This document shows, piece by piece, positions 6,926 to 62,311 of a stretch of 64,000 bases of DNA. Position 1 is the first letter of the stretch. The number at the start of each line of letters is the position of its first letter. Source of the DNA: a virus (taxonomy: Duplodnaviria > Heunggongvirae > Uroviricota > Caudoviricetes). The position numbers and the translations under genes were made by a program. The stretch covers positions 1 to 64,000 of IMG/VR virus record IMGVR_UViG_3300029516_000004; one strand, written 5' to 3'. Under the pieces are notes generated by a model. The model ran no database searches, was not told where the DNA came from, and was given only the letters and a program-made list of their open reading frames with translations.

Positions 6926-9913
6926 ATGAGCTTAAGCGATCAGGTGGTAATGGCCACCAGCATAGAAACGCTGATCGAGCTGCTAAAAAACCTGCCCGAT
7001 TACGGGCGGGTTTCGTATGTGGTGACAGCGAAGGGAGACGAGGTAAAAACAGCGTTTGATATCGTCGATGCCTCAGCTCTTTTGGTATCCAATACTCTGG
7101 ACGGGAAAATTAACCCTGACTATCCCCAGGAACTTCAGCCGCGTGACCGGACCCGCGCATCCAGTCTTCTTCAGGTCAACCAGATATCCAAGGATTTGCG
7201 TCCTGCCCAGCTTACCGATTCCGGTTTATCCAGCCATGGCGCGCCGATAATTGGTGAGGACAATGCCGTTGAGTCAGGTAATGGACGGACCATGGGGATC
7301 ATCAAAGCCTATCAGGACGGCAATGCGGATCGGTATCGTGAGTACCTGATTGATCATGCGACAGAATTCGGCATACGACCTGAAAAGGTTGAATCAATGG
7401 CGGCTCCGGTACTGGTGCGCCGCCGGTTAACGAAGGTTGACCGTGTTCAGTTTGCCAAGGACTCAAATATTTCTGATCTCCAGGAAATGGCAGCCAGTGA
7501 AAAGGCTTTTGTTGATGCCGACAGCATAACACCGGCGATGATGGCGTTGTTTAACCCGTCAGAAAGCGGAGATCTGCTTAGCCGCAGTAATGACGCGTTT
7601 ATTCGCGGATTCATGACGCAAGTTGGTGCCACACAGGCTGCTGGCCTTGTAACGGAAGATGGGCGACCAACACGGCAACTTGTAGACCGTATACAAAACG
7701 CGATCTTTGCCAAGGCATATAAGGATGCGCGCCTGGTAAGGATGGTTGCAGAAGAACCTGATCCGGATATGCGTAATGTTCTGACGGCACTTAATGCGGC
7801 AGCCAATGATTTTGTCCAGATGCAGGCTTTATCAGGAGAAGCGCACAAGCAGGCTGTGACAACTATTGTTGATGGCATTGAGACAGCGGATAGCCTCGAT
7901 AAAAAGGCGCTGGCGGCATTGAAAGATGCGGTAGACCTGGTAAGGCAATCGAAGGAGTCAGGCCAGCATATTACCGATGTTATTGCTCAGGGGGATATGT
8001 TCAGCGAAACGGCCCCGGAAGTGAAAGCACTCGCGTTGTTCATCGTCGCGAATAACCGTAGTGCGAAGCGTATGGCCACCGCCTTTAAGTTGATGGCGCA
8101 ACGTATCAATGATGAGTTACAGCACCAGGGCCAGGCGCTCGGGGATATGTTTGGCGGCGGCGATGTGTCGTTACAGGATATCCTTCGCCAGGTGTCTCAG
8201 GAACTGGAAAACGAAGGTATGCAAGGGATATCCAGCGGTCTTTTCGAGTCAGCTTCCGGCGGTAGTTACAACGGTGTTGCTCCATATACCAGCTTGCTAT
8301 TACATCGGGCATCCGGCATCAAAGACATTATTCATCTGATCAGGCTGCTATCCCGCACCGATCGCCAGGATGAGCAGCTTGTACAAGTGCTTGCGCATTT
8401 TGTCCGAATGCCTGTTGCCGACGTGAAAAAATGGTGCCGATTATTCGGTATCAGCAATTCGTTACTTCGCGGATTGTTAAATCACGCATCCTCCCTTGGG
8501 CGCGATGGCTTTGATGAGATAGCGCAGGCGATACAAAACGGAGATATGCCACCAGCTATTGACTGGTTTTCCATTCGCCCAACCAGGGTGAAAGCATTCC
8601 TTAGCGCGGCGCAATCAGCATCACCATTGGCAGAAATGGTTCAGAGGTTGTCGCTCATATTCACAGATCATACCGCGTTGGGTGATCTGACTCTTGACGA
8701 GATGAAAGAAGCCTCCATTCAGTGGGCCGATCAACAAAATGAGGTTAACTCAGACTTCTTGCCAGCATTCAGGAAGGCCGTTAGTAAAGCGGATGATGCC
8801 CGTGGAATTCTGAAGGCATTTAAGGCATTGCAAAGTCGGGTTAATAAACATGTCGGTGATATCGATGGGGTAACGGCGGAAGGCAGGGATATCCTTAAAG
8901 AGCACGGCATAACGCCAGAGTTTATTGATGAGATCAGGACGGATATGCAGCGTGAGGTCGTATCGTCCCTGCAAATTGTAGCCAGAGCGTTGGCGGATGC
9001 TAATCCGAAGAGTGCGGCCATTGTTAACCGGGTTATTGGTGATATTGAAGCATCGGAGGGCATGGGGGCGCTGAAACTCTTCCTTTCGCGAGCGTTTAAT
9101 CCTAACGGCAATATTCTCCCTGGCATTATTGGTGAGGCTAAAAAGTATGTCAGTGAAGAAGAACTTGAGCAGCTTGACCAACTACTTAAGCGATTCTCAT
9201 ATAACCCGCAGACACGCTGGCAAATGAATCAGCGAAGTATGGGTTCGGTCCACGAGAAAGTGTTATCTGCCATGAACAGTGCGATCGCAAACTCATCCGT
9301 ATCTGAAGAAAAAGCTCTTGAGTGGGCCGACTCTTTTATCACGGAAGAAGTGGAAGAAGCCCGCGCTGGACAGAATGGTGGGATAGACCTGCGCAAGGAA
9401 CTTGCTGATATTTATCGCCTGACCGGCGGGAAAATATCGACCTTATCAAAGGTGGTTCACCACCAGGGAAGGGCATATGCAAATCTAAATGGTGTTGTTG
9501 CTGTCAATTTGAACGATAAAAATGCAAGTGCACTGTGGCACGAGCTGGGTCATCATCTTGAGTACAGTAACCCTGGTTTGTTAGAGAAAGCCCGGTCATT
9601 CCTGAAGGCCAATGTTGAAGGGGATAAGCCATCATTCGTCAATATCGGTGGGCGTGGCAAGCCTGAATGGTGCTTCAGATCTCGATTGAGTAATATTTAT
9701 ATGGCGAAGGTATACCCGCCAGCCTCAGTGAGTAATTCCGGGAAAATTCGGCAGAAATCACCGACTATTTCCAAAACGTCAGCAACGGAAGTATTCTCTA
9801 TGGCTCTTCAGTTGTATCATGACAAAGAGGCCGCTGCCGCATCACTGATGAATGGTGACGGATTGCTGGAACTGTTATTAGGTGTGGCAAAGGAGCTAAA
9901 TAATGCAGATTAA
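6926..9913 (+). CDS. ddrB: DdrB-like protein
   Basis: 995 aa ORF following ddrA; size and position as P1 DdrB. Confidence 0.55.
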   Translation: MSLSDQVVMATSIETLIELLKNLPDYGRVSYVVTAKGDEVKTAFDIVDASALLVSNTLDGKINPDYPQELQPRDRTRASSLLQVNQISKDLRPAQLTDSGLSSHGAPIIGEDNAVESGNGRTMGIIKAYQDGNADRYREYLIDHATEFGIRPEKVESMAAPVLVRRRLTKVDRVQFAKDSNISDLQEMAASEKAFVDADSITPAMMALFNPSESGDLLSRSNDAFIRGFMTQVGATQAAGLVTEDGRPTRQLVDRIQNAIFAKAYKDARLVRMVAEEPDPDMRNVLTALNAAANDFVQMQALSGEAHKQAVTTIVDGIETADSLDKKALAALKDAVDLVRQSKESGQHITDVIAQGDMFSETAPEVKALALFIVANNRSAKRMATAFKLMAQRINDELQHQGQALGDMFGGGDVSLQDILRQVSQELENEGMQGISSGLFESASGGSYNGVAPYTSLLLHRASGIKDIIHLIRLLSRTDRQDEQLVQVLAHFVRMPVADVKKWCRLFGISNSLLRGLLNHASSLGRDGFDEIAQAIQNGDMPPAIDWFSIRPTRVKAFLSAAQSASPLAEMVQRLSLIFTDHTALGDLTLDEMKEASIQWADQQNEVNSDFLPAFRKAVSKADDARGILKAFKALQSRVNKHVGDIDGVTAEGRDILKEHGITPEFIDEIRTDMQREVVSSLQIVARALADANPKSAAIVNRVIGDIEASEGMGALKLFLSRAFNPNGNILPGIIGEAKKYVSEEELEQLDQLLKRFSYNPQTRWQMNQRSMGSVHEKVLSAMNSAIANSSVSEEKALEWADSFITEEVEEARAGQNGGIDLRKELADIYRLTGGKISTLSKVVHHQGRAYANLNGVVAVNLNDKNASALWHELGHHLEYSNPGLLEKARSFLKANVEGDKPSFVNIGGRGKPEWCFRSRLSNIYMAKVYPPASVSNSGKIRQKSPTISKTSATEVFSMALQLYHDKEAAAASLMNGDGLLELLLGVAKELNNAD

Positions 9914-10211
9914 AATCGCAGCGCCATTAGGCGGAGATGCCATTATCGAATTTGATGATAATGAAGAAGTTTCCGGGCGTTTAAGCATTATCTCCGGTGA
10001 CATTACCGAGGACATGATCGCTGAAGCCATAGCTGGAGCAAATCCCAATAGCTATATGGGATTCGTTAACACCCTTGATGCCCCCGCAAGTGATGTTCTC
10101 CGAACGCTGCATCTTTACGCTGGCTGGTTTGTTGATTGGCCAGCAGTAGATGGTGGCGATGAGGACGACGACGATGATTTTGGTGATCATATAGACCAGA
10201 TCATATATTAA
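9903..10211 (+). CDS. Hypothetical acidic protein
   Basis: 102 aa, GGAG RBS, C-terminal DGGDEDDDDDFGD acidic tail. Confidence 0.4.
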   Translation: MQIKIAAPLGGDAIIEFDDNEEVSGRLSIISGDITEDMIAEAIAGANPNSYMGFVNTLDAPASDVLRTLHLYAGWFVDWPAVDGGDEDDDDDFGDHIDQIIY

Positions 10212-10213
10212 AG

Positions 10214-10239
10214 AAATCCCGCCAATCGGCGGGATTTTT
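10214..10239. terminator. Bidirectional rho-independent terminator
   Basis: aaatcccgcc-aatc-ggcgggattttt; GC stem flanked by A-run and T-run. Confidence 0.6.
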
Positions 10240-10242
10240 ACC

Positions 10243-11337
10243 TCACGAGAAGCTCTTTTCTGATGTCAGCCAACAGTGCTCGTGCAAATCTCTTGGTGGT
10301 TTTTCGACAAATGCCTCTTCAGCCACATCCTGCCAGGGGATTTGTTTAGCCCATTCAGCTATAGCGTTATGGTTTGCCGAGAATAACGGTATTGTATAGG
10401 CCTTCAGCCAGTCTAATGTGCTGGAGTTGTGTTTTTGAGCGTGATGTTTCGCATGGTGTTTGGCGATCACGATCGTAGGCACTACCCATTTACTACCGTC
10501 AGTCATTGTGAAGTGCATATTACGGGGAACAGATGACTTTTCCATCAACTCCCGAATCCCGGGAAATTTCCCCAAGATCAATCGGCGATATTCATCGCTA
10601 TTGCGCCCACCAAACTCTTTGGCTTTGAATTCAAGATATGCTTCAGAAACGAGAGGTGAATCCTCTGTGTTTAGAGTTATCGCCGTGAAAAAACCAGCAG
10701 GATTGTTTTTACTATGGGCCAACCGGTGATGCGAATCATAAAAGTACCCTTTCTCGCGTTCCGATGGTTTCGACAGCAACAGCAGGCGCGAGTCATAATT
10801 GGTTAAATTGCCAGTTATCACTGCATGAGCGCGATCGCTGATTTCCTCCGAGTTAATAACGATGAAAAGATCGTGCGGTCCAGTAAAACCAGCCAGAGAC
10901 ACTTCGTTATTCAGACAATAGGTTATATAGACGCATCCCCATATTTCACTGATATGCACCAACCCTTTGTCAGGGTGCATTCTGAAATGATTGCCAAGAA
11001 AAGGGTGTTTTTGGGTAACTCGCTCCCAATAACGGAACATATAGTCAATTATTGTTTTTCGACTATCGTTAATAGCAGGAGAAACAACCACTGTACGGGA
11101 ACACGAATACAGTATTGTTTGCAGGATGCTAATCACTGCCACAATAGAGGTTTCCCCAATACCATGTGGTGTGGTGGCAGTGACTTTGGCTCCGGTGTTC
11201 TTTATCGCGTTAATAATTTTTGCTTGATGAGGTGTTAACTCAATATCAAGCAACTCTTTCGCTGCCAGTTCCCAATTGTCTTTATACTGTTCTATCAGTG
11301 CTAACCAGGCAGGTTCATTCTGTATACGATTAGTCAC
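10243..11337 (-). CDS. Terminase large subunit (PacB) paralog with mutated Walker A and B motifs, no nuclease domain
   Basis: Aligns with PacB of this same window ([11 protein letters not shown] and FTAITLNTEDSPLV blocks conserved) but P-loop is TPHGIGET versus Pac[10 protein letters not shown] and Walker B is LFIVINSEEI versus [10 protein letters not shown]. Confidence 0.75.
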   Translation of the reverse strand: MTNRIQNEPAWLALIEQYKDNWELAAKELLDIELTPHQAKIINAIKNTGAKVTATTPHGIGETSIVAVISILQTILYSCSRTVVVSPAINDSRKTIIDYMFRYWERVTQKHPFLGNHFRMHPDKGLVHISEIWGCVYITYCLNNEVSLAGFTGPHDLFIVINSEEISDRAHAVITGNLTNYDSRLLLLSKPSEREKGYFYDSHHRLAHSKNNPAGFFTAITLNTEDSPLVSEAYLEFKAKEFGGRNSDEYRRLILGKFPGIRELMEKSSVPRNMHFTMTDGSKWVVPTIVIAKHHAKHHAQKHNSSTLDWLKAYTIPLFSANHNAIAEWAKQIPWQDVAEEAFVEKPPRDLHEHCWLTSEKSFS

Positions 11338-12124
11338 TTTCCACCTCTTCCGTGGTGTTTTCTTGCAGTTCTGTTAATGCAGCACGACACAGGTTCCGGG
11401 CCTTGGCTATAGCCACACTTTTGACTTCATCTGTCATCGTGCAGGTAATGTACTGATCGAGTTCTTCAGCGCGGATGATGCTTTTGCCAATCAGAAACTG
11501 TATTTGCCAGAGCAGATCGGCATCCATAATCAGAATTTCTGCCGGGCCTTCAGGGCCAGCCGGGAAGGAAACATAAGACTGTTTGCCAAGGCCGATAACT
11601 CGACAACTTGCTTCAAGAATTGCGCGCTTGAGGTCTGACTTTGTAACTGAAACAGGTTGATTTTCACCTGCGATTACGCCGTTGACATGGATGTGGAAGG
11701 GCATGTAGCTTGAAATTCGCTCTACTTTCCATACGCCAGCAAGCGATCCTTCATGCAGCACAATGGGGGTAACAGCGAGTTTCATCTCACCATATAACTG
11801 CTGGCAGATAGCTGGATTGCTGAATACATCCAAAGGTTCACACTCAAACAGCGGTGCAATCTGCATGAGGTCCATCATGGTCATACCTGGGGTACGAGCG
11901 GTAATGAATCTGCGCATGCCAGTATCCATTGTTCGCCAGATAGCTACACCATGCTTTTTGCTCACTTCTTCAGTAAAGCCAAGGTGGCACATGATGGTTT
12001 TTTCGATAGCCAGATCAGAGATAGAAACCTTTTCGCCTGGCACTCCATCATTATTGATGGTCACTTCGACACTCTGGCCATTACGTAGGCGGTATTGAAT
12101 GGTTTTAGTATTTTGTGCTGTCAT
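11330..12124 (-). CDS. Hypothetical protein, partner of the PacB paralog
   Basis: 264 aa ORF overlapping the downstream gene by 8 nt; no recognisable motif. Confidence 0.6.
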   Translation of the reverse strand: MTAQNTKTIQYRLRNGQSVEVTINNDGVPGEKVSISDLAIEKTIMCHLGFTEEVSKKHGVAIWRTMDTGMRRFITARTPGMTMMDLMQIAPLFECEPLDVFSNPAICQQLYGEMKLAVTPIVLHEGSLAGVWKVERISSYMPFHIHVNGVIAGENQPVSVTKSDLKRAILEASCRVIGLGKQSYVSFPAGPEGPAEILIMDADLLWQIQFLIGKSIIRAEELDQYITCTMTDEVKSVAIAKARNLCRAALTELQENTTEEVESD

Positions 12125-12321
12125 AGTCTTTTCTCTGCTTAAAAACTGATGTATTGCGCCTTCAGGTTGGTTAGGAATGTTTTCCCACCAGCGAAAGCAA
12201 TATCTCGGGGTGTTCTATTCGTTAAAAGCGCGTGCCATTGCCAACTTTGGCGTTTTTGAGCGAGTTCGTGCTTTTGTCGGCGTCTGGACCACCGCTTTTC
12301 TTTCAGTCGTTTTTTACACAT

Positions 12322-12810
12322 TCAAAACGGAATATCGTCGTCAAAGTCCATTGGAGGTTCGTTATTGGCGTTGCTCTGAGGTTTACCGCCACCACTGTAT
12401 TGCTGGTGGTTTTGAGGTTGGTTTGATTGCCCCCAGCCATTTGAGGACTGTGAATCGTCACGGCGAGCGCCGATCATTTGCATGGTGCCGCCCTGGCTGA
12501 CGATAATTTCCGTCGTGTAACGTTCTACACCGGCGTCATCTGTCCACTTACGGGTTTTAAGTTTCCCTTCGATGTAGACCTGAGAACCTTTTCGTAAATA
12601 TTCACTCGCAATTTCAGCAAGTTTTCCGAACAAAACGACTTTATGCCATTCTGTTTGCTCTTTCTGTTGGCCCGTTTGCTTGTCGCGCCATGATTCATTC
12701 GTTGCGATGCTGAGTCTTCCGACCGCGCCGCCATTTGGTATATACCTGATCTCCGGGTCTTGCCCCAGGGTACCAATCAGGATGACTTTGTTTACACCGC
12801 GTTGTGCCAC
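12322..12810 (-). CDS. ssb: Single-stranded DNA-binding protein
   Basis: OB-fold N-terminus ([15 protein letters not shown]...[12 protein letters not shown]), Gly/Gln-rich linker, C-terminal DFDDDIPF. Confidence 0.95.
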
Positions 12811-12830
12811 TTATCTTACCTAATAAAATA

Positions 12831-12847
12831 AATTAATTAGAGCAATA
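12831..12847 (-). promoter_or_regulatory. C1 repressor operator-like site upstream of ssb
   Basis: aaattaattagagcaat, 15/17 to reverse complement of ATTGCTCTAATAAATTT. Confidence 0.6.
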
Positions 12848-12867
12848 ATGTATATCTTTGAAACGTA

Positions 12868-12895
12868 GCTAACAAGTGATTTGCATTATCCTGTG
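12868..12895 (+). promoter_or_regulatory. Putative late promoter upstream of lyz
   Basis: AACAAGTGATTTGCATTATCCT shares the AACAAGTGAC-type element seen before other late operons. Confidence 0.35.
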
Positions 12896-12979
12896 TCTTC
12901 TAAAGGGATCGAGTCAGTCGGTATTGGCTGTGAATGGGTGTTTGTCCTGGAGCGTAAAAAATTCGCTTATGAGGTCTTT

Positions 12980-13537
12980 ATGAAGGGAAAAACAGCCGCA
13001 GGAGGCGGTGCAATTTGCGCTATCGCGGTGATGATTACCATCGTGATGGGTAATGGCAATGTGCGAACCAACCAGGCGGGGCTTGAGCTTATCGGAAACG
13101 CTGAAGGTTGCCGACGTGATCCATACAAGTGCCCGGCGGGTGTATGGACTGACGGGATTGGTAATACACACGGGGTAACGCCTGGCGTGCGAAAAACCGA
13201 CCAACAAATCGCCGCTGATTGGGAAAAGAATATCCTGATCGCTGAACGCTGTATTAACCAGCACTTCCGGGGCAAAGACATGCCCGATAATGCCTTCAGC
13301 GCAATGACAAGCGCGGCATTCAATATGGGATGCAATAGTTTACGGACCTACTACAGCAAAGCGCGAGGCATGCGAGTCGAAACGTCCATCCACAAGTGGG
13401 CGCAGAAAGGGGAATGGGTGAATATGTGTAACCATCTCCCTGATTTCGTGAACAGTAACGGCGTCCCCCTGCCCGGGTTAAAGATTCGCCGTGAAGAAGA
13501 ACGCCAGCTTTGCCTGACGGGGCTTGTCAATGAATAA
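12980..13537 (+). CDS. lyz: SAR endolysin (T4-lysozyme-like muramidase)
   Basis: 185 aa; N-terminal Gly/Ala-rich weakly hydrophobic signal-anchor; lysozyme-like core. Confidence 0.85.
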   Translation: MKGKTAAGGGAICAIAVMITIVMGNGNVRTNQAGLELIGNAEGCRRDPYKCPAGVWTDGIGNTHGVTPGVRKTDQQIAADWEKNILIAERCINQHFRGKDMPDNAFSAMTSAAFNMGCNSLRTYYSKARGMRVETSIHKWAQKGEWVNMCNHLPDFVNSNGVPLPGLKIRREEERQLCLTGLVNE

Positions 13538-32465: not shown

Positions 32466-32482
32466 AGAATTATTAGAGCAAT
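32466..32482 (-). promoter_or_regulatory. C1 operator-like site
   Basis: agaattattagagcaat, 15/17 to operator consensus. Confidence 0.6.
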
Positions 32483-32537
32483 AAATTTTGAGAGAAAAAT
32501 CCCACTCCACCAGCCAAAAACTGGATTGCTTTTCATA

Positions 32538-32554
32538 GTTGTTTGACAATTGCT
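32538..32554 (+). promoter_or_regulatory. C1 operator-like site
   Basis: attgctctaataaatta, 16/17 to ATTGCTCTAATAAATTT. Confidence 0.7.
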
Positions 32555-32803
32555 CTAATAAATTATAGTTTTGCCGCCGTTTCGTAATACGACTTTGGAT
32601 TCACTATTTAATGTGTCTTCAGCGTTGTAGAGCGGCTCAGAAGGAAATGAGCAAACAGGGAAACCTTATACAACGGCATTACAGCTATGCATTGCTCATC
32701 TTACACACAGCGCAATGTTGTTAGATTACCCCAGCATGGATCATGGGTGAAACAGTAGGTCAGAGCTTCAGGCTCTGTGTTGTCAATACAGTGAGGCATA
32801 ATT

Positions 32804-34000: not shown

Positions 34001-35485
34001 TTATTCATTAAGCCATGCCAGAGCTTCATCAACCTGCGCTTCGTCTTCGACGCTAAGCACTTCATCTTGGGGAACATAGTTCGCCAACATAGCGAAACAA
34101 TATGTATCCCAATGGTCCGGTGAGTGCAGGTTGAGTTTTTTCTTCATATCTTCCTTTGACATCACCTTCCATTGACCTGCGGAATTTATCCCTACCGGTA
34201 TCTTTGATGCTTCCTCTATAGTCGCAGCCCCCTTATCAAGCCGCATACGCCCTGATTTTACAGCTTCTGCCGCCTGAATATTCGCGAAAGCGCGCATATC
34301 GAAATAAAGGCTTTTATCTTCACGGCTGTGCATCTTTTTACCCCAGCGGATACGCTGGACGGTAATACCATAGCGTTCGTACATCAGATCAGCCGTCGAT
34401 TTCCCCAAGCCATCGCCATCAATAGCTATGGTTATGTTCGGGAACCGTTCTGGGTTACATTCTGCGAAAATCTTGGCGGCTAACTGCGTTTCTGTAACGT
34501 CTGTGTATTCCAGCATACGATAGTTGATTACACGGCGTTTATTTCGCTGGCCGGACACCATCATGATATTAATAACGGACTTATCTCGTCCTGCGCCACC
34601 AGCAACGTCAACACATGCAACCCAGCCCCATCCTTTGGCAATCTTGACCTTTCGCCGCGTCGCCCGCTCAACCTCATCACGACCAAGAAGAAAGCCATCT
34701 TGAGATTTGGGAAATTCACCACGTACTTTAATCATATACATGGGGTTATCACGACCGCCATACTCCGCAAGTTTTGCTCGTATAAATTTTGCATCTACAA
34801 GCGGAGATTCTTCACTATTCAGTATTATCGCAGTAAACAATCCATCAGGATTTCCCGGGCGAATAGCTAGTCTGTGGTGTGAATCGTAGAAATAGCCTGA
34901 AGGTCGCGTAGGCTGGGAAAGAAGCAGAATACGGTTATCCTTACCGGTCAGCGCACCTGTTATCACACTGAATGCTTTATCACTCACACCCGACGCTTCG
35001 TCGATGATATACAAGAGATGATCGGCGTGTTCACCAGCCAACGCCTCCTCATTTCCGGGGCGACAGGACTTTATCAATATTGTCCAAACACCCTTGCCAG
35101 TCACCTCAAAAAAAGACGTTTCTGTAAGAATGAAATACTTCGACAACCACGGGAATCTGCTAACAGCAGTAGCCCAATTGCTCTTTATGTATTTGAAAAT
35201 ACCATCAAGGACTTGCTGTCTTTTGTTAGCGACCAGAATAACGCGAGCGCCGGGGAAAAACATGATGAAGAGTATTGCAATGATACTCGTCATATCCGAC
35301 TTACCAGTACCATGGCCGGAGGTCACACTTGTCCAACTGCCGTCCTGCTGCGTGGACTCAATGATCTCATCCTGCTGCCAGGTTGGTGTCTTCCCAAACA
35401 ACACATCAGCGGCCGCAATCCAGTCATAACGATATAGCGCCACCAGCTCGCGCCAACGTGGGTCCGTTACGCAACTTCTGGCCAT
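34001..35485 (-). CDS. pacB: Terminase large subunit PacB
   Basis: 494 aa; Walker [10 protein letters not shown], Walker [12 protein letters not shown]-terminal nuclease-like region; overlaps pacA stop. Confidence 0.85.
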
Positions 35486-36678
35486 TAATCATCATCCCCG
35501 TACAGTTTGCGGGTAACTTCTTCGTCTTCCTCCTCGTCTTCGTCCAGATCCTGTTCAAGCCATGCTTCGTTTGATATGCCTTCCGCATCGACATCACCAT
35601 AACCACCTGTATCGACGATATCGGCAATTTCTTCTCTACGATGCTCAATCCACAATGCGGCATCAGCGCGGCGGCTGGCGGCCCGTTCTCGCGCGATTTT
35701 ATCCAGATCTTCAAGTGATGGAGCGCCAGATGCTGTTTGGTTTTCCTCGTCATCGGTATTGGTCTTAGGAGCACGCAGATCGGCTTTGATTTGCTCCAGC
35801 ATCAGGGGCGGCACTTTCCCTCCATGCGCCTCGATGAATTCAGCTGCTTCCAGCACTGACCAGTTATTTTCACGCTTTCGTTCGTATGCCAGCTTAACAA
35901 TGCCAGCTTGCCCCATAGATAAAGCGTGCTTTTCCGCCTCCCGGCTTTCTTTTCGATAGTTATTCCGGATGCTGTAAATGGTGTTGATCAGGCTGCTTAT
36001 CTGCGCGGAACAGCTGTTTAGCATGCTCGCGATACGGTATTCAGGCGGAGTACCTTCATCATCGTCTTTTTGCTGATCGCGCATTTCCTGCACCAGGCGA
36101 ATACACGTATCCCTGGCGTTCTCCAGCATAAGGAGATGAGAAAGAGACTTTTCAAGAAGAGTGGTTTCCAGAACATCGGCCCCGGACCGACGCAACATAG
36201 CGCGCGCGGCCTTCCGTGCTTCAACGTTATCTATCAGGTAATCGCCAGCTTCGAATTCAAAGCGTTCACCATCATCATCCAGGGTGTCGCGTTCCAGGCG
36301 ATCACGTAAGGTACGGTGGGCGCGAGTGATCACGTCATGATCATCAGAACGATCATTTATGCGCTTATTTTGGCGCTTAGCGTTCTCGACTGCGGCACTG
36401 ACAACAGCATTAACTCTTTGTTTTTCAGCCATTTCAGCCACAATGTGATCACCTGCACGTTGATCATTAGCGTGATCAATGATCATGCTTTTTAGTGGTT
36501 TCCTGACAGGCTTATTTGGCTTACGACTGTCCGCTGTTCCGGTGTCTTCTTTGAATGCACGGAGATAACGACGTGCGGTGTTTGGGTTGAGATTAAACTC
36601 GGCGGCATATTGTGCGATGGTGTAACCACCATCTCGCGCCAGGCGAGCAAAATTCTTCTTGTGATCGTCCCAGGTCAC
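35485..36678 (-). CDS. pacA: Terminase small subunit PacA (contains pac site)
   Basis: 397 aa, GTG start after AGGAAG, acidic C-terminus; GATC clusters inside 5' part. Confidence 0.8.
36300..36484. other. pac packaging site (two GATC clusters)
   Basis: Four GATC at 36300-36354 and four at 36447-36484 inside pacA 5' region. Confidence 0.7.
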
Positions 36679-39338: not shown

Positions 39339-40901
39339 ATGAAAATGACAAGTATTCAACAACGTGCAGAGCTTCATCGTCAAATCTGGCAAATTGCTAA
39401 CGATGTCAGGGGTTCGGTCGATGGATGGGATTTTAAGCAATACGTTCTGGGCGCACTTTTCTACCGTTTTATCAGCGAAAATTTTTCCAGCTATATTGAA
39501 GCCGGGGATGACAGTATCTGTTATGCGAAACTGGATGACAGCGTAATTACTGATGACATTAAAGACGATGCTATCAAAACTAAAGGCTACTTCATCTACC
39601 CCAGTCAGCTTTTCTGCAACGTAGCGGCGAAAGCAAATACCAATGACAGACTGAATGCAGATTTAAACAGCATCTTCGTTGCTATCGAAAGTTCTGCTTA
39701 CGGTTATCCTTCAGAAGCTGACATCAAAGGTTTGTTTGCTGATTTCGATACCACCAGTAACCGCCTGGGTAACACCGTTAAAGATAAAAATGCCCGCCTG
39801 GCTGCGGTTCTGAAAGGGGTTGAAGGGTTAAAACTTGGTGACTTCAACGAACATCAGATTGACCTGTTCGGTGATGCCTATGAGTTCCTGATCTCTAACT
39901 ATGCGGCAAATGCCGGTAAGTCAGGCGGCGAGTTCTTTACACCGCAGCACGTCTCTAAGCTGATTGCACAACTGGCTATGCACGGGCAGACCCACGTTAA
40001 CAAAATCTACGACCCGGCAGCAGGCTCCGGTTCGCTGTTGTTGCAGGCTAAAAAACAGTTTGATGACCATATCATCGAAGAAGGTTTTTTTGGTCAGGAA
40101 ATCAACCATACGACCTATAACCTGGCGCGTATGAACATGTTTTTGCACAACATCAACTACGACAAGTTTGATATCAAGCTGGGCAATACGCTGACTGAAC
40201 CGCACTTCAGAGATGAAAAACCGTTTGATGCCATCGTTTCTAACCCGCCGTATTCGGTGAAATGGATTGGCAGCGATGACCCGACGCTGATTAACGATGA
40301 ACGTTTTGCCCCGGCTGGCGTTCTGGCCCCCAAATCCAAAGCTGACTTTGCGTTTGTATTACATGCGCTGAACTATCTTTCTGCCAAAGGTCGTGCTGCG
40401 ATTGTTTGCTTCCCGGGTATTTTTTACCGTGGCGGTGCGGAGCAGAAAATCCGTCAGTATCTGGTCGACAATAACTATGTCGAAACCGTGATTTCACTGG
40501 CACCGAATCTGTTCTTTGGCACCACCATTGCCGTCAATATTCTGGTGCTGTCTAAACATAAAACCGATACCAAAGTTCAGTTTATTGACGCCAGCGAACT
40601 ATTCAAAAAAGAGACCAACAACAATATCCTGACCGATGCCCATATCGAACAGATTATGCAGGTATTTGCCAGCAAGGAAGATGTTGCTCATCTGGCGAAA
40701 TCAGTCGCGTTTGAGACCGTTGTTGCTAATGACTATAACCTGTCGGTGAGCAGCTATGTTGAAGCGAAAGATACTCGCGAAATTATCGATATCGCTGAGT
40801 TGAATGCAGAGCTGAAAACCACGGTCAGCAAAATCGACCAGTTGCGTAAAGATATTGATGCAATTGTGGCTGAAATTGAAGGCTGCGAGGTGCAGAAATG
40901 A
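39339..40901 (+). CDS. hsdM: Type I restriction-modification methyltransferase HsdM
   Basis: 520 aa; AdoMet motif [11 protein letters not shown], catalytic SNPPYSVKW. Confidence 0.9.
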
Positions 40902-42115
40902 GCGAGTTGAGTTATCTGGAAAAATTGATGGATGGGGTTGAAGTTGAGTGGTTGCCACTCTCAAAAGTATTCAACTTAAGGAATGGTTATACACCGTCTA
41001 AAACTAAAAAAGAATTTTGGGCGAATGGTGATATACCTTGGTTCAGAATGGATGACATACGTGAAAATGGTAGAATTCTAGGGAGTTCACTTCAAAAAAT
41101 TTCATCCTGCGCCGTAAAAGGGGGGAAACTATTTCCTGAAAATTCAATATTAATATCAACGTCGGCAACAATTGGTGAGCATGCTTTAATCACTGTACCT
41201 CATCTAGCCAATCAAAGGTTTACATGTTTGGCTTTAAAAGAGTCTTATGCTGATTGCTTTGATATTAAATTTTTATTTTACTACTGTTTTTCTTTAGCTG
41301 AGTGGTGCCGAAAAAACACAACGATGTCCAGTTTTGCGTCTGTTGATATGGATGGATTCAAAAAATTTTTAATCCCTCGCCCCTGCCCGGATAATCCGGA
41401 AAAATCCCTTGCCATCCAGTCTGAAATCGTGCGAATTCTGGACAAATTCAGCGCCCTTACTGCAGAGCTTACTGCAGAGCTTACTGCAGAGCTTAGCATG
41501 CGTAAAAAACAATACAACTACTATCGCGACCAGTTGTTGAGTTTTAAAGAGGATGAGGTTGAGGGTAAGAGGAAAACCTTAGGGGAAATTATGAAGATGC
41601 GTGCCGGACAACATATTTCGGCTCATAATATAATTGAAAGAAAAGAAGAGAGTTATATATATCCTTGTTTTGGAGGAAATGGCATACGGGGTTACGTCAA
41701 AGAAAAAAGTCATGATGGAGAACATCTATTAATAGGGCGACAAGGAGCATTGTGTGGTAATGTTCAAAGAATGAAAGGCCAGTTCTATGCTACAGAACAT
41801 GCTGTTGTAGTTTCAGTCATGCCCGGGATTAACATTGACTGGGCATTTCATATGTTAACGGCAATGAATCTAAACCAATATGCTTCAAAATCGGCACAAC
41901 CGGGACTTGCTGTAGGGAAATTACAGGAATTGAAATTATTTGTCCCTTCAATAGAGAGACAAATATATATTGCCGCAATACTCGATAAATTCGACACTCT
42001 GACCAACTCCATCACCGAAGGTCTCCCGCGTGAAATCGAGTTACGCCAGAAACAGTACGAATATTATCGAGATATGCTATTTAGTTTCCTGAAGCCGGAA
42101 GTAGCAGAGGCATGA
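40898..42115 (+). CDS. hsdS: Type IC specificity subunit HsdS
   Basis: Two AT-rich variable domains separated by conserved central region with three TAEL repeats; conserved C-terminal [20 protein letters not shown]. Confidence 0.85.
41456..41491 (+). repeat. 3 x 12-bp in-frame tandem repeat (cttactgcagag) in hsdS central region
   Basis: Encodes [13 protein letters not shown]. Confidence 0.8.
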
Positions 42116-42116
42116 C

Positions 42117-43307
42117 ATGGGCAAGACACTCTCGGAAATAGCTCAACAGCTTAGTACGCCTCAGAAAGTCAAGAAGACTGTCCATAAAGAAGTTGAAGCG
42201 ACCAGGGCCGTGCCAAAGGTGCAGTTAATCTACGCTTTCAATGGCACGGGGAAAACGCGTCTTTCCCGGGATTTCAAGCAACTGCTTGAGTCCAAAGTTC
42301 ATGACGGAGAAGGTGAAGACGAAGCTGAACAGTCCGCGTTGTCGCGCAAAAAAATCCTCTATTATAATGCCTTCACCGAGGACTTGTTCTATTGGGATAA
42401 CGATCTGCAAGAAGACGCAGAACCGAAGCTGAAGGTGCAGCCTAACTCCTATACAAACTGGTTGCTGACCTTGCTAAAAGATTTGGGACAGGATAGCAAT
42501 ATCGTCCGTTATTTCCAGCGCTATGCGAACGACAAGCTAACGCCACACTTCAATCCAGATTTTACCGAAATCACTTTTTCCATGGAGCGCGGTAACGATG
42601 AGCGTTCCGCCCACATCAAGTTATCCAAAGGTGAAGAGAGCAACTTCATCTGGAGTGTGTTTTACACCCTACTGGATCAAGTGGTAACAATTCTCAATGT
42701 CGCTGACCCGGATGCGCGCGAGACCCACGCATTTGATCAACTGAAATATGTATTCATTGATGATCCCGTTAGCTCCCTTGATGATAACCACTTGATTGAA
42801 CTGGCGGTTGATCTTGCAGGGCTGATCAAATCCAGCGAATCCGATTTGAAGTTCATTATCACGACACATAGTCCAATATTTTATAATGTACTTTTCAATG
42901 AGTTGAACGGTAAAGTTTGCTACATGTTGGAAAGTTTTGAGGATGGTACATTTGCCCTCACAGAAAAATATGGCGACTCTAACAAGAGTTTTTCCTACCA
43001 TCTCCACCTAAAGCAAACAATCGAACAGGCAATTGCTGACAACAACGTTGAAAGATATCATTTCACGTTACTGCGCAATCTTTATGAGAAAACGGCCAGC
43101 TTTCTGGGCTACCCTAAATGGTCTGAACTCTTGCCTGACGACAAGCAGCTTTATCTGAGCAGAATCATCAATTTCACAAGCCACAGCACGCTATCGAATG
43201 AGGCCGTTGCAGAGCCAACGCCAGCGGAGAAAGCGACTGTCAAACTGTTGCTCGATCACTTGAAGAACAACTGTGGCTTCTGGCAGCAGGAACAAAAAAA
43301 TGGTTGA
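42117..43307 (+). CDS. prrC: PrrC anticodon nuclease
   Basis: 396 aa; N-terminal P-loop FNGTGKT; C-terminal R320-x3-E324 ... H356 spacing (LLRNLYEKT...NFTSHSTLS); embedded between hsdS and hsdR as in the prr locus. Confidence 0.9.
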
Positions 43308-61628: not shown

Positions 61629-62294
61629 ACTTGCCGGGTACGTCTCCGGCGAGGGCTTCCACCTCCGTATGCTTTTCGGCGCACCGCGCCCTGGCTGCAA
61701 TTCGGTAACAGGGGATGCACAACCCTGGCTTCCAGCGTGATTAGCGCCTTCAGCATGACGGGATATACCCGTAAATTCGTGGAACTGTACCCAAAGTGCT
61801 GTTAAGCACCGCTGTTACGCTGAAAAGAAAACGCAACAGGAAAGGACGCTGACCAACAGATGGCCCCTTCTCGTTCATCTGGTTAATCACACCAGCGCCC
61901 TTACCTGTTGTGCCTCCCCGTTCCCTAATACACAGACGGGGACACTCTGCGGTCGATTTTTTTGACGGGGGACGACTCATACCCCGTGGCATCTGGTTTC
62001 TTAGGCCGCTACCATCATCAGATCATCGTTTGCATTTACTTTAATGGTCAGTTTCTAAACCGCCGCAAAGTCGCTAACCATGACGAAAACCCTGAAAAAA
62101 ACGCCCACCCGAAGATGGGCAAACTGGAAGCTCGTAACGCACTTCGGCGTTGCCACTTAGGCGCATGGTCAACCTGGCAACTCGGTGGTTTGTCTGGGAG
62201 GACTAGGCCCAGCCATGCTTACCGCCGCGCCTGTCGCGGCTAACAGCTAAATCGCTCTATAAATCACGATTCATTGAGGCGATATTACACTAAT

Positions 62295-62311
62295 AAATTT
62301 ATTAGAGCAAT
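62295..62311 (-). promoter_or_regulatory. C1 operator, perfect consensus, heading the tRNA-tci-ban transcription unit
   Basis: Minus strand reads ATTGCTCTAATAAATTT 17/17; overlaps dmt stop codon. Confidence 0.8.

Follow-up and report, generated by a model that had tools for sequence, protein, structure and literature searches.

Why should a phage that keeps a complete terminase also carry a second, altered terminase-like gene far from its packaging genes? The window analyzed here is a stretch of 64,000 nucleotides from a virus of the class Caudoviricetes (IMG/VR record IMGVR_UViG_3300029516_000004, positions 1 to 64,000). It belongs to a P1-type phage-plasmid and encodes the genuine pacase genes pacA (35485..36678, minus strand) and pacB (34001..35485, minus strand; 494 aa), which served as our comparators. 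About 22 kb from this pair lie two further minus-strand ORFs, 11330-12124 (264 aa) and 10243-11337 (364 aa, GTG start), both present where an initial annotation of the DNA had placed them. Our analysis indicates that the 364-aa ORF is almost certainly a PacB-derived pseudo-enzyme, hereafter pseudo-PacB. It has the TerL ATPase fold with all hydrolysis residues replaced, lacks the nuclease domain, carries a fused domain of ~100 aa, and is an accessory gene belonging to a wider clade.

The relationship to PacB is supported by both sequence and predicted structure. BLASTP aligned residues 1-289 of the 364-aa protein with the PacB of the same genome at 34% identity (E 1e-51), in agreement with the initial annotation, which had matched the ORF to the PacB ATPase domain. 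Structure prediction had been suggested there as a check, and the AlphaFold model (pLDDT 86 overall, above 90 over residues 11-260) showed the terminase ATPase fold. The top PDB and BFVD matches in Foldseek were all terminase ATPase domains, including those of Sf6 gp2, P74-26, HK97, D6E, and T4 gp17. The N-terminal domain (residues 1-262; 10552..11337, minus strand) thus has the ASCE ATPase fold found at the N terminus of TerL proteins, and the protein groups with PacB-type terminases. It shares with PacB the N-terminal helices and the motifs FYDSHH, EDSPLV, and YGGR..YR. In a segment-wise comparison with its own PacB, these helices and residues 181-220 were best kept (60-70% identity), and no single binding surface was convincingly singled out. 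The protein corresponds to PHROG 5902, listed as "unknown function" (E 8.8e-183, residues 2-364), with a weaker match to the TerL family phrog_2. Searches of Pfam, PADLOC, and NCBIfam returned no match for this protein, for the product of the neighboring 264-aa ORF, or for four other clade members.

The residues required for catalysis have been replaced. At the Walker A position (residues 57-64; 11146..11169, minus strand) the protein reads PHGIGETS against GHGTGKSD in PacB, so that the invariant Lys-Ser/Thr pair is missing from HGIGET. The lysine has become glutamate, as had been noted initially (GIGET in place of GTGKS), and the serine has become threonine. The Walker B segment (residues 158-163; 10849..10866, minus strand) reads FIVINS against YIIDEA, with isoleucine in place of the Walker B aspartate and asparagine in place of the catalytic glutamate (IVIN versus IIDE). 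The earlier reading of this motif, INSE versus IDEA, had correctly recognized its loss and was off by one residue in register. The C-motif threonine and other TerL-invariant residues are also gone. These replacements recur in the clade members compared: the TerL-invariant positions K62, D162, E163, H153, Q91, and T193 are retained in none of nine members, while fold residues are kept. Among 53 TerL relatives, the Walker A lysine is present in 100%, the Walker B aspartate in 98%, and the catalytic glutamate in 100%, compared with 0/9 in the pseudo-PacB clade for each.

The nuclease part of the enzyme is likewise missing. The PacB nuclease domain (~230 aa, with its catalytic Asp residues) is absent, ~100 unrelated residues stand in its place, and the protein stops ~130 residues before the end of PacB. 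The columns of the nuclease that are invariant in TerLs align with gaps or with residues other than Asp, and neither the alignment nor the model shows an RNase H-like nuclease with its catalytic Asp positions, which bears out the initial observation that this domain is lacking. The replacement domain (residues 263-364; 10246..10551, minus strand) was modeled with moderate confidence (pLDDT 52-76) as two strands plus helices. Its P1-lineage and D6-lineage versions share 58% identity, and it has stand-alone homologues in other phage contigs (P0140, 123 aa; P0166, 100 aa; E ~1e-9 to 1e-10). A nuclease remnant was considered for this domain and rejected, given these free-standing homologues and the absence of any retained catalytic column. 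Since DNA translocation and cutting should be impossible without the catalytic residues and the nuclease, pseudo-PacB would be expected to act by binding only.

With respect to expression, the arrangement of the locus points to the ssb transcription unit. Its first gene, ssb (12322..12810, minus strand), was identified as an ORF and from the annotation of the homologous gene in P1 and P7. Upstream of it lies a C1 repressor operator, ATTGCTCTAATTAATTT (12830..12846, minus strand), with one mismatch to the consensus. It is the equivalent of Ossb/Op21, and the P1 annotation lists a C1 operator at the homologous position. The window contains seven matches to the C1 operator, compared with 0.02 expected by chance. 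Between ssb and the two ORFs, the coding strand showed no terminator-like site. The initial placement of the gene downstream of ssb and a C1 operator is therefore upheld, and by analogy with the P1 annotation pseudo-PacB is predicted to be expressed early, from the C1-controlled ssb operon. The stop codon of the 264-aa ORF and the GTG start of pseudo-PacB overlap by 8 nt, and a GAGG Shine-Dalgarno sequence lies 7-10 nt upstream of this start. Because of these two features, translational coupling of the genes is likely; the overlapping arrangement was seen in 27/27 loci.

On the other side, a GC-rich hairpin (10214..10237) separates pseudo-PacB from the convergent hxr gene (9903..10211, plus strand). 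Together with ddrB (6926..9913, plus strand), hxr forms the distal end of the Dar/Ddr antirestriction operon, as assigned by comparison with P1 and from a published table (PMC10695390). Plasmids that carry the upstream gene alone have the same hairpin directly after its stop codon.

That upstream gene, described initially as unknown, is the ordinary isaA of P1. The 264-aa ORF (11330..12124, minus strand) aligns along its 264 aa with residues 57-320 of the annotated P1 IsaA at 97% identity, matches PHROG 2326 (E 8.5e-151), and occupies the same place downstream of ssb, in synteny with P1. The two genomes differ in what follows: in reference P1 the order is isaA-IS1-isaB, as the initial annotation had stated, whereas here isaA overlaps the pseudo-PacB gene. 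P1 IsaB was considered as a counterpart of the 364-aa protein and rejected as unrelated. Beyond the isaA stop codon P1 contains no remnant of the 364-aa gene, so IS1 did not simply split it. The possibility, raised at the outset, that both ORFs are ordinary P1/P7 genes of this interval thus holds for isaA and fails for the 364-aa gene, which reference P1 and P7 lack. The two ORFs had also been likened to pacA-pacB as a small gene followed by a large one. A functional TerL gene would lie beside that of a small subunit in the packaging module; here the upstream gene is isaA, and neither BLASTP nor profile comparison (hhalign) detected any similarity between IsaA and PacA, which reduces the analogy to gene order.

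IsaA itself yielded few clues. Its profile gave chance-level matches to PDB sequences (E 0.3 or worse), and its AlphaFold model, built from a single sequence, reached a pLDDT of 35; the family, confined to P1 and D6 lineages, is too shallow for a useful alignment. Two relatives, P0018 and P0021, look like frameshifted artefacts. We found no IsaA function described in the literature. The gene is dispensable for lytic growth of P1 on a laboratory host (PMC10695390), an observation that is compatible with the decoy proposal discussed below and uninformative about it.

The distribution of pseudo-PacB is that of a maintained accessory gene. Of the complete E. coli genomes, 100 among 5,426 carry it, every copy being full length, and it also occurs in 119 PLSDB plasmids; it is thus a common variant of the isaA hotspot despite its absence from reference P1 and P7. 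Presence and absence are patchy and involve a clean, gene-sized unit: where present, the gene always follows isaA directly, its start codon overlapping the isaA stop, and ~2/3 of isaA-bearing plasmids have isaA without it. Word-based searches recovered only three relatives of the 364-aa protein and, for the C-terminal domain, only fragments; an exhaustive HMMER search reached the wider family. This clade, which spans 30-48% identity, consists of short PacB-like proteins with degenerate Walker motifs, is sister to the PacB-type terminases, and is without annotation. Members on typable contigs reside on P1/D6-type phage-plasmids (the contig of P0002 is not on record). A complete pacB is also kept in this window and in the D6-type loci examined. 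Our literature search found no described dead terminase paralogue.

These data bear on whether the gene is a decaying, functionless duplicate of pacB. The loss of all catalytic residues and of the nuclease domain would fit such a relic. However, the isaA and pseudo-PacB ORFs were intact in 27/27 loci, and dN/dS within lineages was 0.12-0.31, with a pN of 0.31 against a pS of 0.74 between lineages. The two lineages, 52% identical, keep the same length and architecture, and the full-length E. coli copies and the breadth of the clade point the same way. The pseudogene reading is contradicted by these selection and conservation data and was rejected; we regard it as extremely improbable. Selection on a catalytically dead protein makes a protein mimic the most likely interpretation.

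The surroundings of the hotspot suggest what kind of conflict such a mimic might serve. In D6-type and many P1-type plasmids, isaA is directly preceded by a co-oriented Tad2-like anti-Thoeris gene (PF11195, E 1e-20 to 4e-23), and the isaA/pseudo-PacB hotspot borders the Dar/Ddr antirestriction operon. The reported frequency of Tad2 is 93% among D6 and 56% among P1 phage-plasmids, Dar-Ddr is reportedly universal among them, and defence systems are among the cargo of P1-type variable regions (bioRxiv 10.1101/2025.09.12.675607). Other cargo of this hotspot is defence-like or unrelated: a dGTPase-like gene, the nmpC porin gene, and IS1. Distant clade members have other upstream neighbors, namely a Ref-like nuclease and a radical-SAM protein; the latter, next to P0030, falls far below viperin cut-offs and is uninformative. 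The initial annotation had proposed a packaging regulator, a decoy, or interference with co-infecting phages, and to this list the neighborhood adds an anti-defence reading.

No proteins of tailed phages are more conserved than terminase large subunits, which are also a main target of bacterial pattern-recognition immunity. We tentatively favor the possibility that pseudo-PacB is an early, non-catalytic mimic of PacB that serves as an anti-defence decoy against terminase-sensing immunity. In this proposal, pseudo-PacB would be produced from the C1-repressed ssb operon ahead of the late protein PacB, whose ATPase domain it would imitate at the molecular level. The targets that we favor are host immune receptors that recognize the terminase ATPase domain (Avs1-3, Upx). 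The terminase ATPase domain alone is a ligand of EcAvs2 and Upx, and EcAvs2 contacts ATP and Mg in the terminase active site (bioRxiv 10.64898/2026.04.30.721860). A look-alike without bound ATP could thus fill the sensor pocket without licensing oligomerization. The specific claim that the dead ATPase-domain copy occupies Avs1-3 or Upx early in P1/D6-type infection without triggering them is more doubtful than the general one. IsaA, co-produced by coupling, would be a partner.

In favor of the decoy we counted the fact that the nine clade members have selectively lost catalytic residues and kept fold residues, together with purifying selection, the early-operon position, patchy presence, and the anti-defence neighbors. 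We know of no decoy-type inhibitor of Avs or Upx. The neighborhood arguments are associative, the distant clade members differ upstream, and this account does not explain what IsaA and the C-terminal domain do. The closest analogue also counts against it: vs.8 of T4, an uncharacterized stand-alone paralogue of the T4 terminase ATPase domain, is bound by EcAvs2 and activates it, rather than blocking it (bioRxiv 10.64898/2026.04.30.721860). Like pseudo-PacB, vs.8 is a nuclease-less, phage-encoded paralogue of the phage's own terminase ATPase domain, and its case demonstrates that terminase-sensing immunity detects such paralogues. By its description, on which this comparison is based, vs.8 keeps Walker A and B and is of T4-type origin. 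Pseudo-PacB, in contrast, is of the PacB type and no longer has these motifs; it also possesses an additional C-terminal domain and is coupled to IsaA.

The main rival to the decoy reading is interference with packaging, which we consider rather unlikely. Here the dead look-alike would target a co-resident or superinfecting P1/P7/D6-type phage, binding its PacA or portal or joining its PacB ring, and poison the motor, so that the carrier gains in competition among phage-plasmids. Ring packaging ATPases are poisoned by inactive subunits, as in the T4, phi29, and lambda motors, and satellites use terminase-binding proteins (SaPI Ppi, PICI Rpp) to block the packaging of their helpers. Pseudo-PacB is a paralogue of a packaging ATPase that resides with pacA-pacB in the same window, its best-conserved parts are PacB-type helices and residues 181-220, and its patchy distribution fits a conflict gene. 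Ppi and Rpp offer a parallel as non-catalytic proteins of mobile elements that bind terminase components. However, they are small, unrelated to terminases, and bind the small subunit, whereas pseudo-PacB is a TerL derivative from a complete phage whose binding is hypothetical. Moreover, the PacAB of the carrier itself would face this poison too, and no specificity determinant was found. The gene is also probably silent in the lysogen, where exclusion matters most, because its early operon is repressed by C1. A related proposal, that early in the lytic cycle the protein acts as a self-regulator, titrating PacA or pac DNA and delaying pac cleavage until heads are ready, would explain the early-operon position and the mimicry of PacB. 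We find it quite improbable. An early inhibitor would have little to inhibit since PacA and PacB are late proteins, and the absence of the gene from P1, P7, and ~2/3 of isaA-bearing relatives rules out a core regulator; unlike pacB, it lies in an early accessory operon away from pacA and is dispensable across the family.

Other readings give more weight to the neighboring genes. In a two-gene conflict system, the pseudo-ATPase would be the sensor or adaptor for a foreign packaging component or DNA end, with the effector encoded by the variable upstream gene (IsaA, Ref-like nuclease, or radical-SAM protein). A constant pseudo-ATPase with varying, often overlapping upstream partners is consistent with this, as are the stop-start overlap, suggestive of stoichiometric co-production, and the occurrence of defence systems in P1-type variable regions. 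Yet PADLOC matched neither IsaA nor any clade member submitted, IsaA mostly occurs without the pseudo-ATPase, and the predicted expression is lytic rather than lysogenic. The Ref-like neighbor, in turn, may simply be the ordinary P1 ref homologue, presumably in its usual cre-proximal region. We judge such a system unlikely. An accessory role in DNA metabolism is suggested by its neighbors (ssb here; dut, the Ref-like nuclease, and RdgC in relatives). In early replication or recombination, the protein would then work alongside SSB, Ref, or Dut as a scaffold that binds DNA or protein. Such neighborhoods are, however, generic early or accessory regions, and DNA binding by the isolated domain is a supposition, which makes this role very improbable.

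Whichever reading holds, a terminase paralogue that is under selection, catalytically dead, and nuclease-less represents a class of phage accessory protein without annotation, and the class recurs across P1/D6-type phage-plasmids beside known anti-defence genes. It bears on two questions, namely self-mimicry against terminase sensors and packaging competition among related phage-plasmids. If the decoy reading is true, pseudo-PacB would be the first anti-defence decoy of a pathogen-associated pattern itself, obtained by duplication of the sensed protein. IsaA, to our knowledge unexplained since the P1 genome paper, gains a consistent genetic partner. Even if the gene is neutral, there is practical value in correcting its current annotation, which is "hypothetical protein" or, wrongly, "terminase large subunit".

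The window is a P1-type phage-plasmid, with positions 9000-13500 98% identical to the Punavirus P1 record MH422554. The 364-aa ORF (10243-11337, minus strand), which we call pseudo-PacB, follows a 264-aa ORF (11330-12124, minus) and ssb (12322-12810, minus), with lyz (12881-13537, plus) beyond ssb. The distal part of the dar operon, with ddrB (6926-9913, plus) and hxr (9903-10211, plus), forms the other flank. An E. coli plasmid of 93,433 bp (AP026472.1 / NZ_CP128959.1) matches the 2.1-kb interval and its 364-aa gene at 100% identity. The genuine pacase genes, pacA (35485-36678, minus) and pacB (34001-35485, minus), are also present.

As the initial annotation proposed, both ORFs lie downstream of ssb and a C1 operator. 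This operator (12830-12846, minus, one mismatch) is located just upstream of ssb, and from ssb to the two ORFs the coding strand has no terminator-like site. The unit is closed by a GC-rich hairpin (10214-10237). The pseudo-PacB gene is placed in a unit that is C1-controlled in P1. The window contains seven C1 operator matches, where chance predicts 0.02; the other six fall within 32466-32565 and at 46668-46684, 52433-52449 and 62284-62311, the last forming an overlapping divergent pair.

The 364-aa protein can be aligned with the window's own PacB over residues 1 to about 289 (34% identity, E 1e-51), in agreement with the suggested match to the N-terminal ATPase domain. A four-way alignment and a 110-sequence alignment of relatives both show that Walker A changes from GHGTGKSD in PacB to PHGIGETS, confirming replacement of the P-loop lysine. 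Walker B and the catalytic Glu change from YIIDEA to FIVINS; here the reported substitution holds, while the strings originally quoted were one residue out of register. Structure prediction, a proposed check, supports a terminase ATPase fold. The AlphaFold2 model, built from a 69-sequence alignment, has a mean pLDDT of 86 (above 90 for residues 11-260), and its top Foldseek matches in the PDB are all terminase ATPase domains: Sf6 gp2 (E 2.5e-9), then P74-26, HK97, D6E and T4 gp17. Matches in BFVD agree.

For residues 263-364 the model is only moderately confident (pLDDT 52-76) and shows two strands plus helices. This part keeps none of the TerL-invariant nuclease columns, and homologues of it, 100-123 aa long, occur as free-standing proteins in unrelated phage contigs; therefore the nuclease is absent, as originally noted, and a different small domain stands in its place. 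Such homologues include L051 5113-5415 and L050 2562-2933. One free-standing copy has split DNA polymerase B genes on one side and a RecA/UvsX-like gene on the other; its contig also carries Phage_DsbA, dNMP-kinase and dCMP-deaminase genes.

Three defining features of a functional terminase were tested on the 364-aa protein and were absent, so it is not a functional terminase; it is a pseudo-enzyme offshoot of the large subunit. In public records it goes under "hypothetical protein" or the misleading "terminase large subunit". It falls in PHROG 5902, annotated as unknown function, and no account of it turned up in our literature searches.

An exhaustive HMMER search over 1.84 billion representatives returned 604 relatives. 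Those of at least 450 aa all carry GK[ST] and DE, except for a few single-position variants. Both motifs are degenerate in eleven representatives, which are either short (230-268 aa) or end in a non-nuclease C-terminus (364-366 aa, 444 aa). In a neighbour-joining tree, which has no bootstrap support, eight of the eleven form one clade, sister to PacB-type terminases. The TerL-invariant Lys62, Asp162, Glu163, His153, Gln91 and Thr193 are kept in none of nine clade members, while the Q-motif Gln and the Gly, Pro and aromatic positions that define the fold are conserved. Separately, several full-length PacB-type terminases among the relatives (P0052, P0062, P0074, P0099 and P0118) carry long insertions of ~130-340 residues inside Walker A (GHGC...HNTGKS) that look like inteins.

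Genomic contexts were recovered for five members. The contigs of P0026, P0028, P0034 and P0036 encode a P1/P7-type C1 repressor and a Cre-like recombinase, and P0032 lies in a prophage-like early region. The order Tad2-like, IsaA, pseudo-PacB is repeated for P0026 and P0028. The gene for P0034, a distant degenerate member of 263 aa on an 84-kb contig, overlaps by 4 nt the stop codon of the gene for a Ref-like, RecA-dependent nuclease (L042 7336-8792). A sixth member, P0030, lies downstream of a radical-SAM gene on a contig of untyped kind.

The 264-aa ORF, initially described as an unknown gene, is P1 IsaA, with 97% identity to residues 57-320 of the annotated protein. The 320-aa annotation in reference P1 (L001 4425-5387; 12124-12321 in the window) is probably over-extended at its 5' end: a stop codon in frame ahead of the ATG at 12124 excludes the longer form in the window, and the PHROG 2326 profile covers 264 residues. 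IsaA had no match in Pfam, PADLOC or NCBIfam, nothing significant among PDB sequences and no similarity to PacA. The proposed small-then-large likeness to pacA-pacB is therefore one of gene order alone. CRISPRi knock-down of isaA leaves P1 lytic growth unimpaired (PMC10695390).

At the position of the 364-aa gene, the suggested comparison with P1 and P7 gave other cargo. Reference P1 has isaA, a different hairpin, the expected IS1, and isaB, which is unrelated to the 364-aa gene; P7 has the porin gene nmpC. The ssb-hxr interval (10212-12321 in the window) is a recognised variable region among P1-like plasmids (PMC6906374, PMC9603915); vB_EcoM-673R5 has dGTPase-like genes there, and JL22 an ompD porin. 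In PLSDB, isaA occurs in 337 plasmids, 119 of which also carry the 364-aa gene. The latter was found, always at full length, in 100 of 5,426 complete E. coli genomes, with 99 of 101 copies plasmid-borne. In plasmids with isaA only, the hairpin that closes the unit in the window stands directly 3' of the isaA stop, so the 364-aa gene is gained and lost as a clean unit.

A second pseudo-PacB lineage (52% identical) occupies a different genomic place in D6-type phage-plasmids, in the order pacB, c1, cre, two ORFs, dut, Tad2-like, isaA-like, pseudo-PacB, doc/phd, humD, and is present in only 34 of 131 isaA-bearing plasmids. In each of the 27 loci compared, both ORFs are intact and isaA directly precedes pseudo-PacB, its stop codon overlapping the start codon of the latter; the two are probably co-translated. 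Within lineages, Nei-Gojobori estimates of dN/dS are 0.12-0.31 (pseudo-PacB) and 0.10-0.15 (isaA). Comparison across lineages gives a pN of 0.31-0.35 and a pS of 0.74, which is saturated, and divergence is similar (52% amino-acid identity for pseudo-PacB, 48% for IsaA). Given the low dN/dS and similar divergence, both are maintained proteins, inherited together. In one D6-lineage locus (L031 7220-7993), isaA departs strongly from the other copies of its lineage in the 5' half; its 3' half, like the pseudo-PacB gene, is nearly identical to theirs. This pattern suggests a recombination breakpoint within isaA.

Overall, these results confirm what the initial annotation observed and support its interpretation in part. 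These data show pseudo-PacB to be a selected, non-catalytic look-alike of the PacB ATPase domain; a relic is effectively excluded. Judged by its sequence, it would have neither ATPase nor nuclease activity and would act by binding only. Our preferred, tentative reading is that it may mimic the terminase ATPase domain against immunity. EcAvs2 and Upx, sensors of E. coli and Salmonella, are activated by this domain alone; EcAvs2 reads ATP and Mg in the terminase site and binds vs.8, a T4 ATPase-domain paralogue (bioRxiv 10.64898/2026.04.30.721860). An early, ATP-less PacB look-alike could occupy such sensors unproductively. T4 vs.8 is the nearest described protein, but it retains its Walker motifs, whereas pseudo-PacB does not. 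The main rival, rather unlikely in our estimation, is that, in a competing P1-type element, it would poison or titrate components of the packaging machinery (PacA, portal, PacB ring). Lesser rivals cast it as the sensor in a two-gene conflict system, as a self-timing regulator or as an accessory factor in DNA metabolism. The candidate function is cheaply testable against a current question.

Known anti-defence genes lie in the neighbourhood. In the D6-type loci examined and in many P1-type plasmids, the gene directly upstream of isaA matches Pfam Tad2-like (PF11195, anti-Thoeris; E 1e-20 to 4e-23), as at L035 4414-5091 (minus), L020 6527-7213, L052 4515-5201 and L053 4590-5234. It is absent from the window, where the ssb-isaA gap is 197 bp. 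According to a phage-plasmid survey, 93% of D6 elements and 56% of P1 elements have Tad2, and Dar-Ddr antirestriction is universal (bioRxiv 10.1101/2025.09.12.675607). The window also carries a type I restriction-modification cassette (39339-46419, plus), identified by PADLOC with E-values between 6e-148 and 0, in which a gene for a PrrC anticodon nuclease separates the specificity gene from the restriction gene: hsdM (39339-40901), hsdS (40898-42115), prrC (42117-43307) and hsdR (43273-46419), all on the plus strand.
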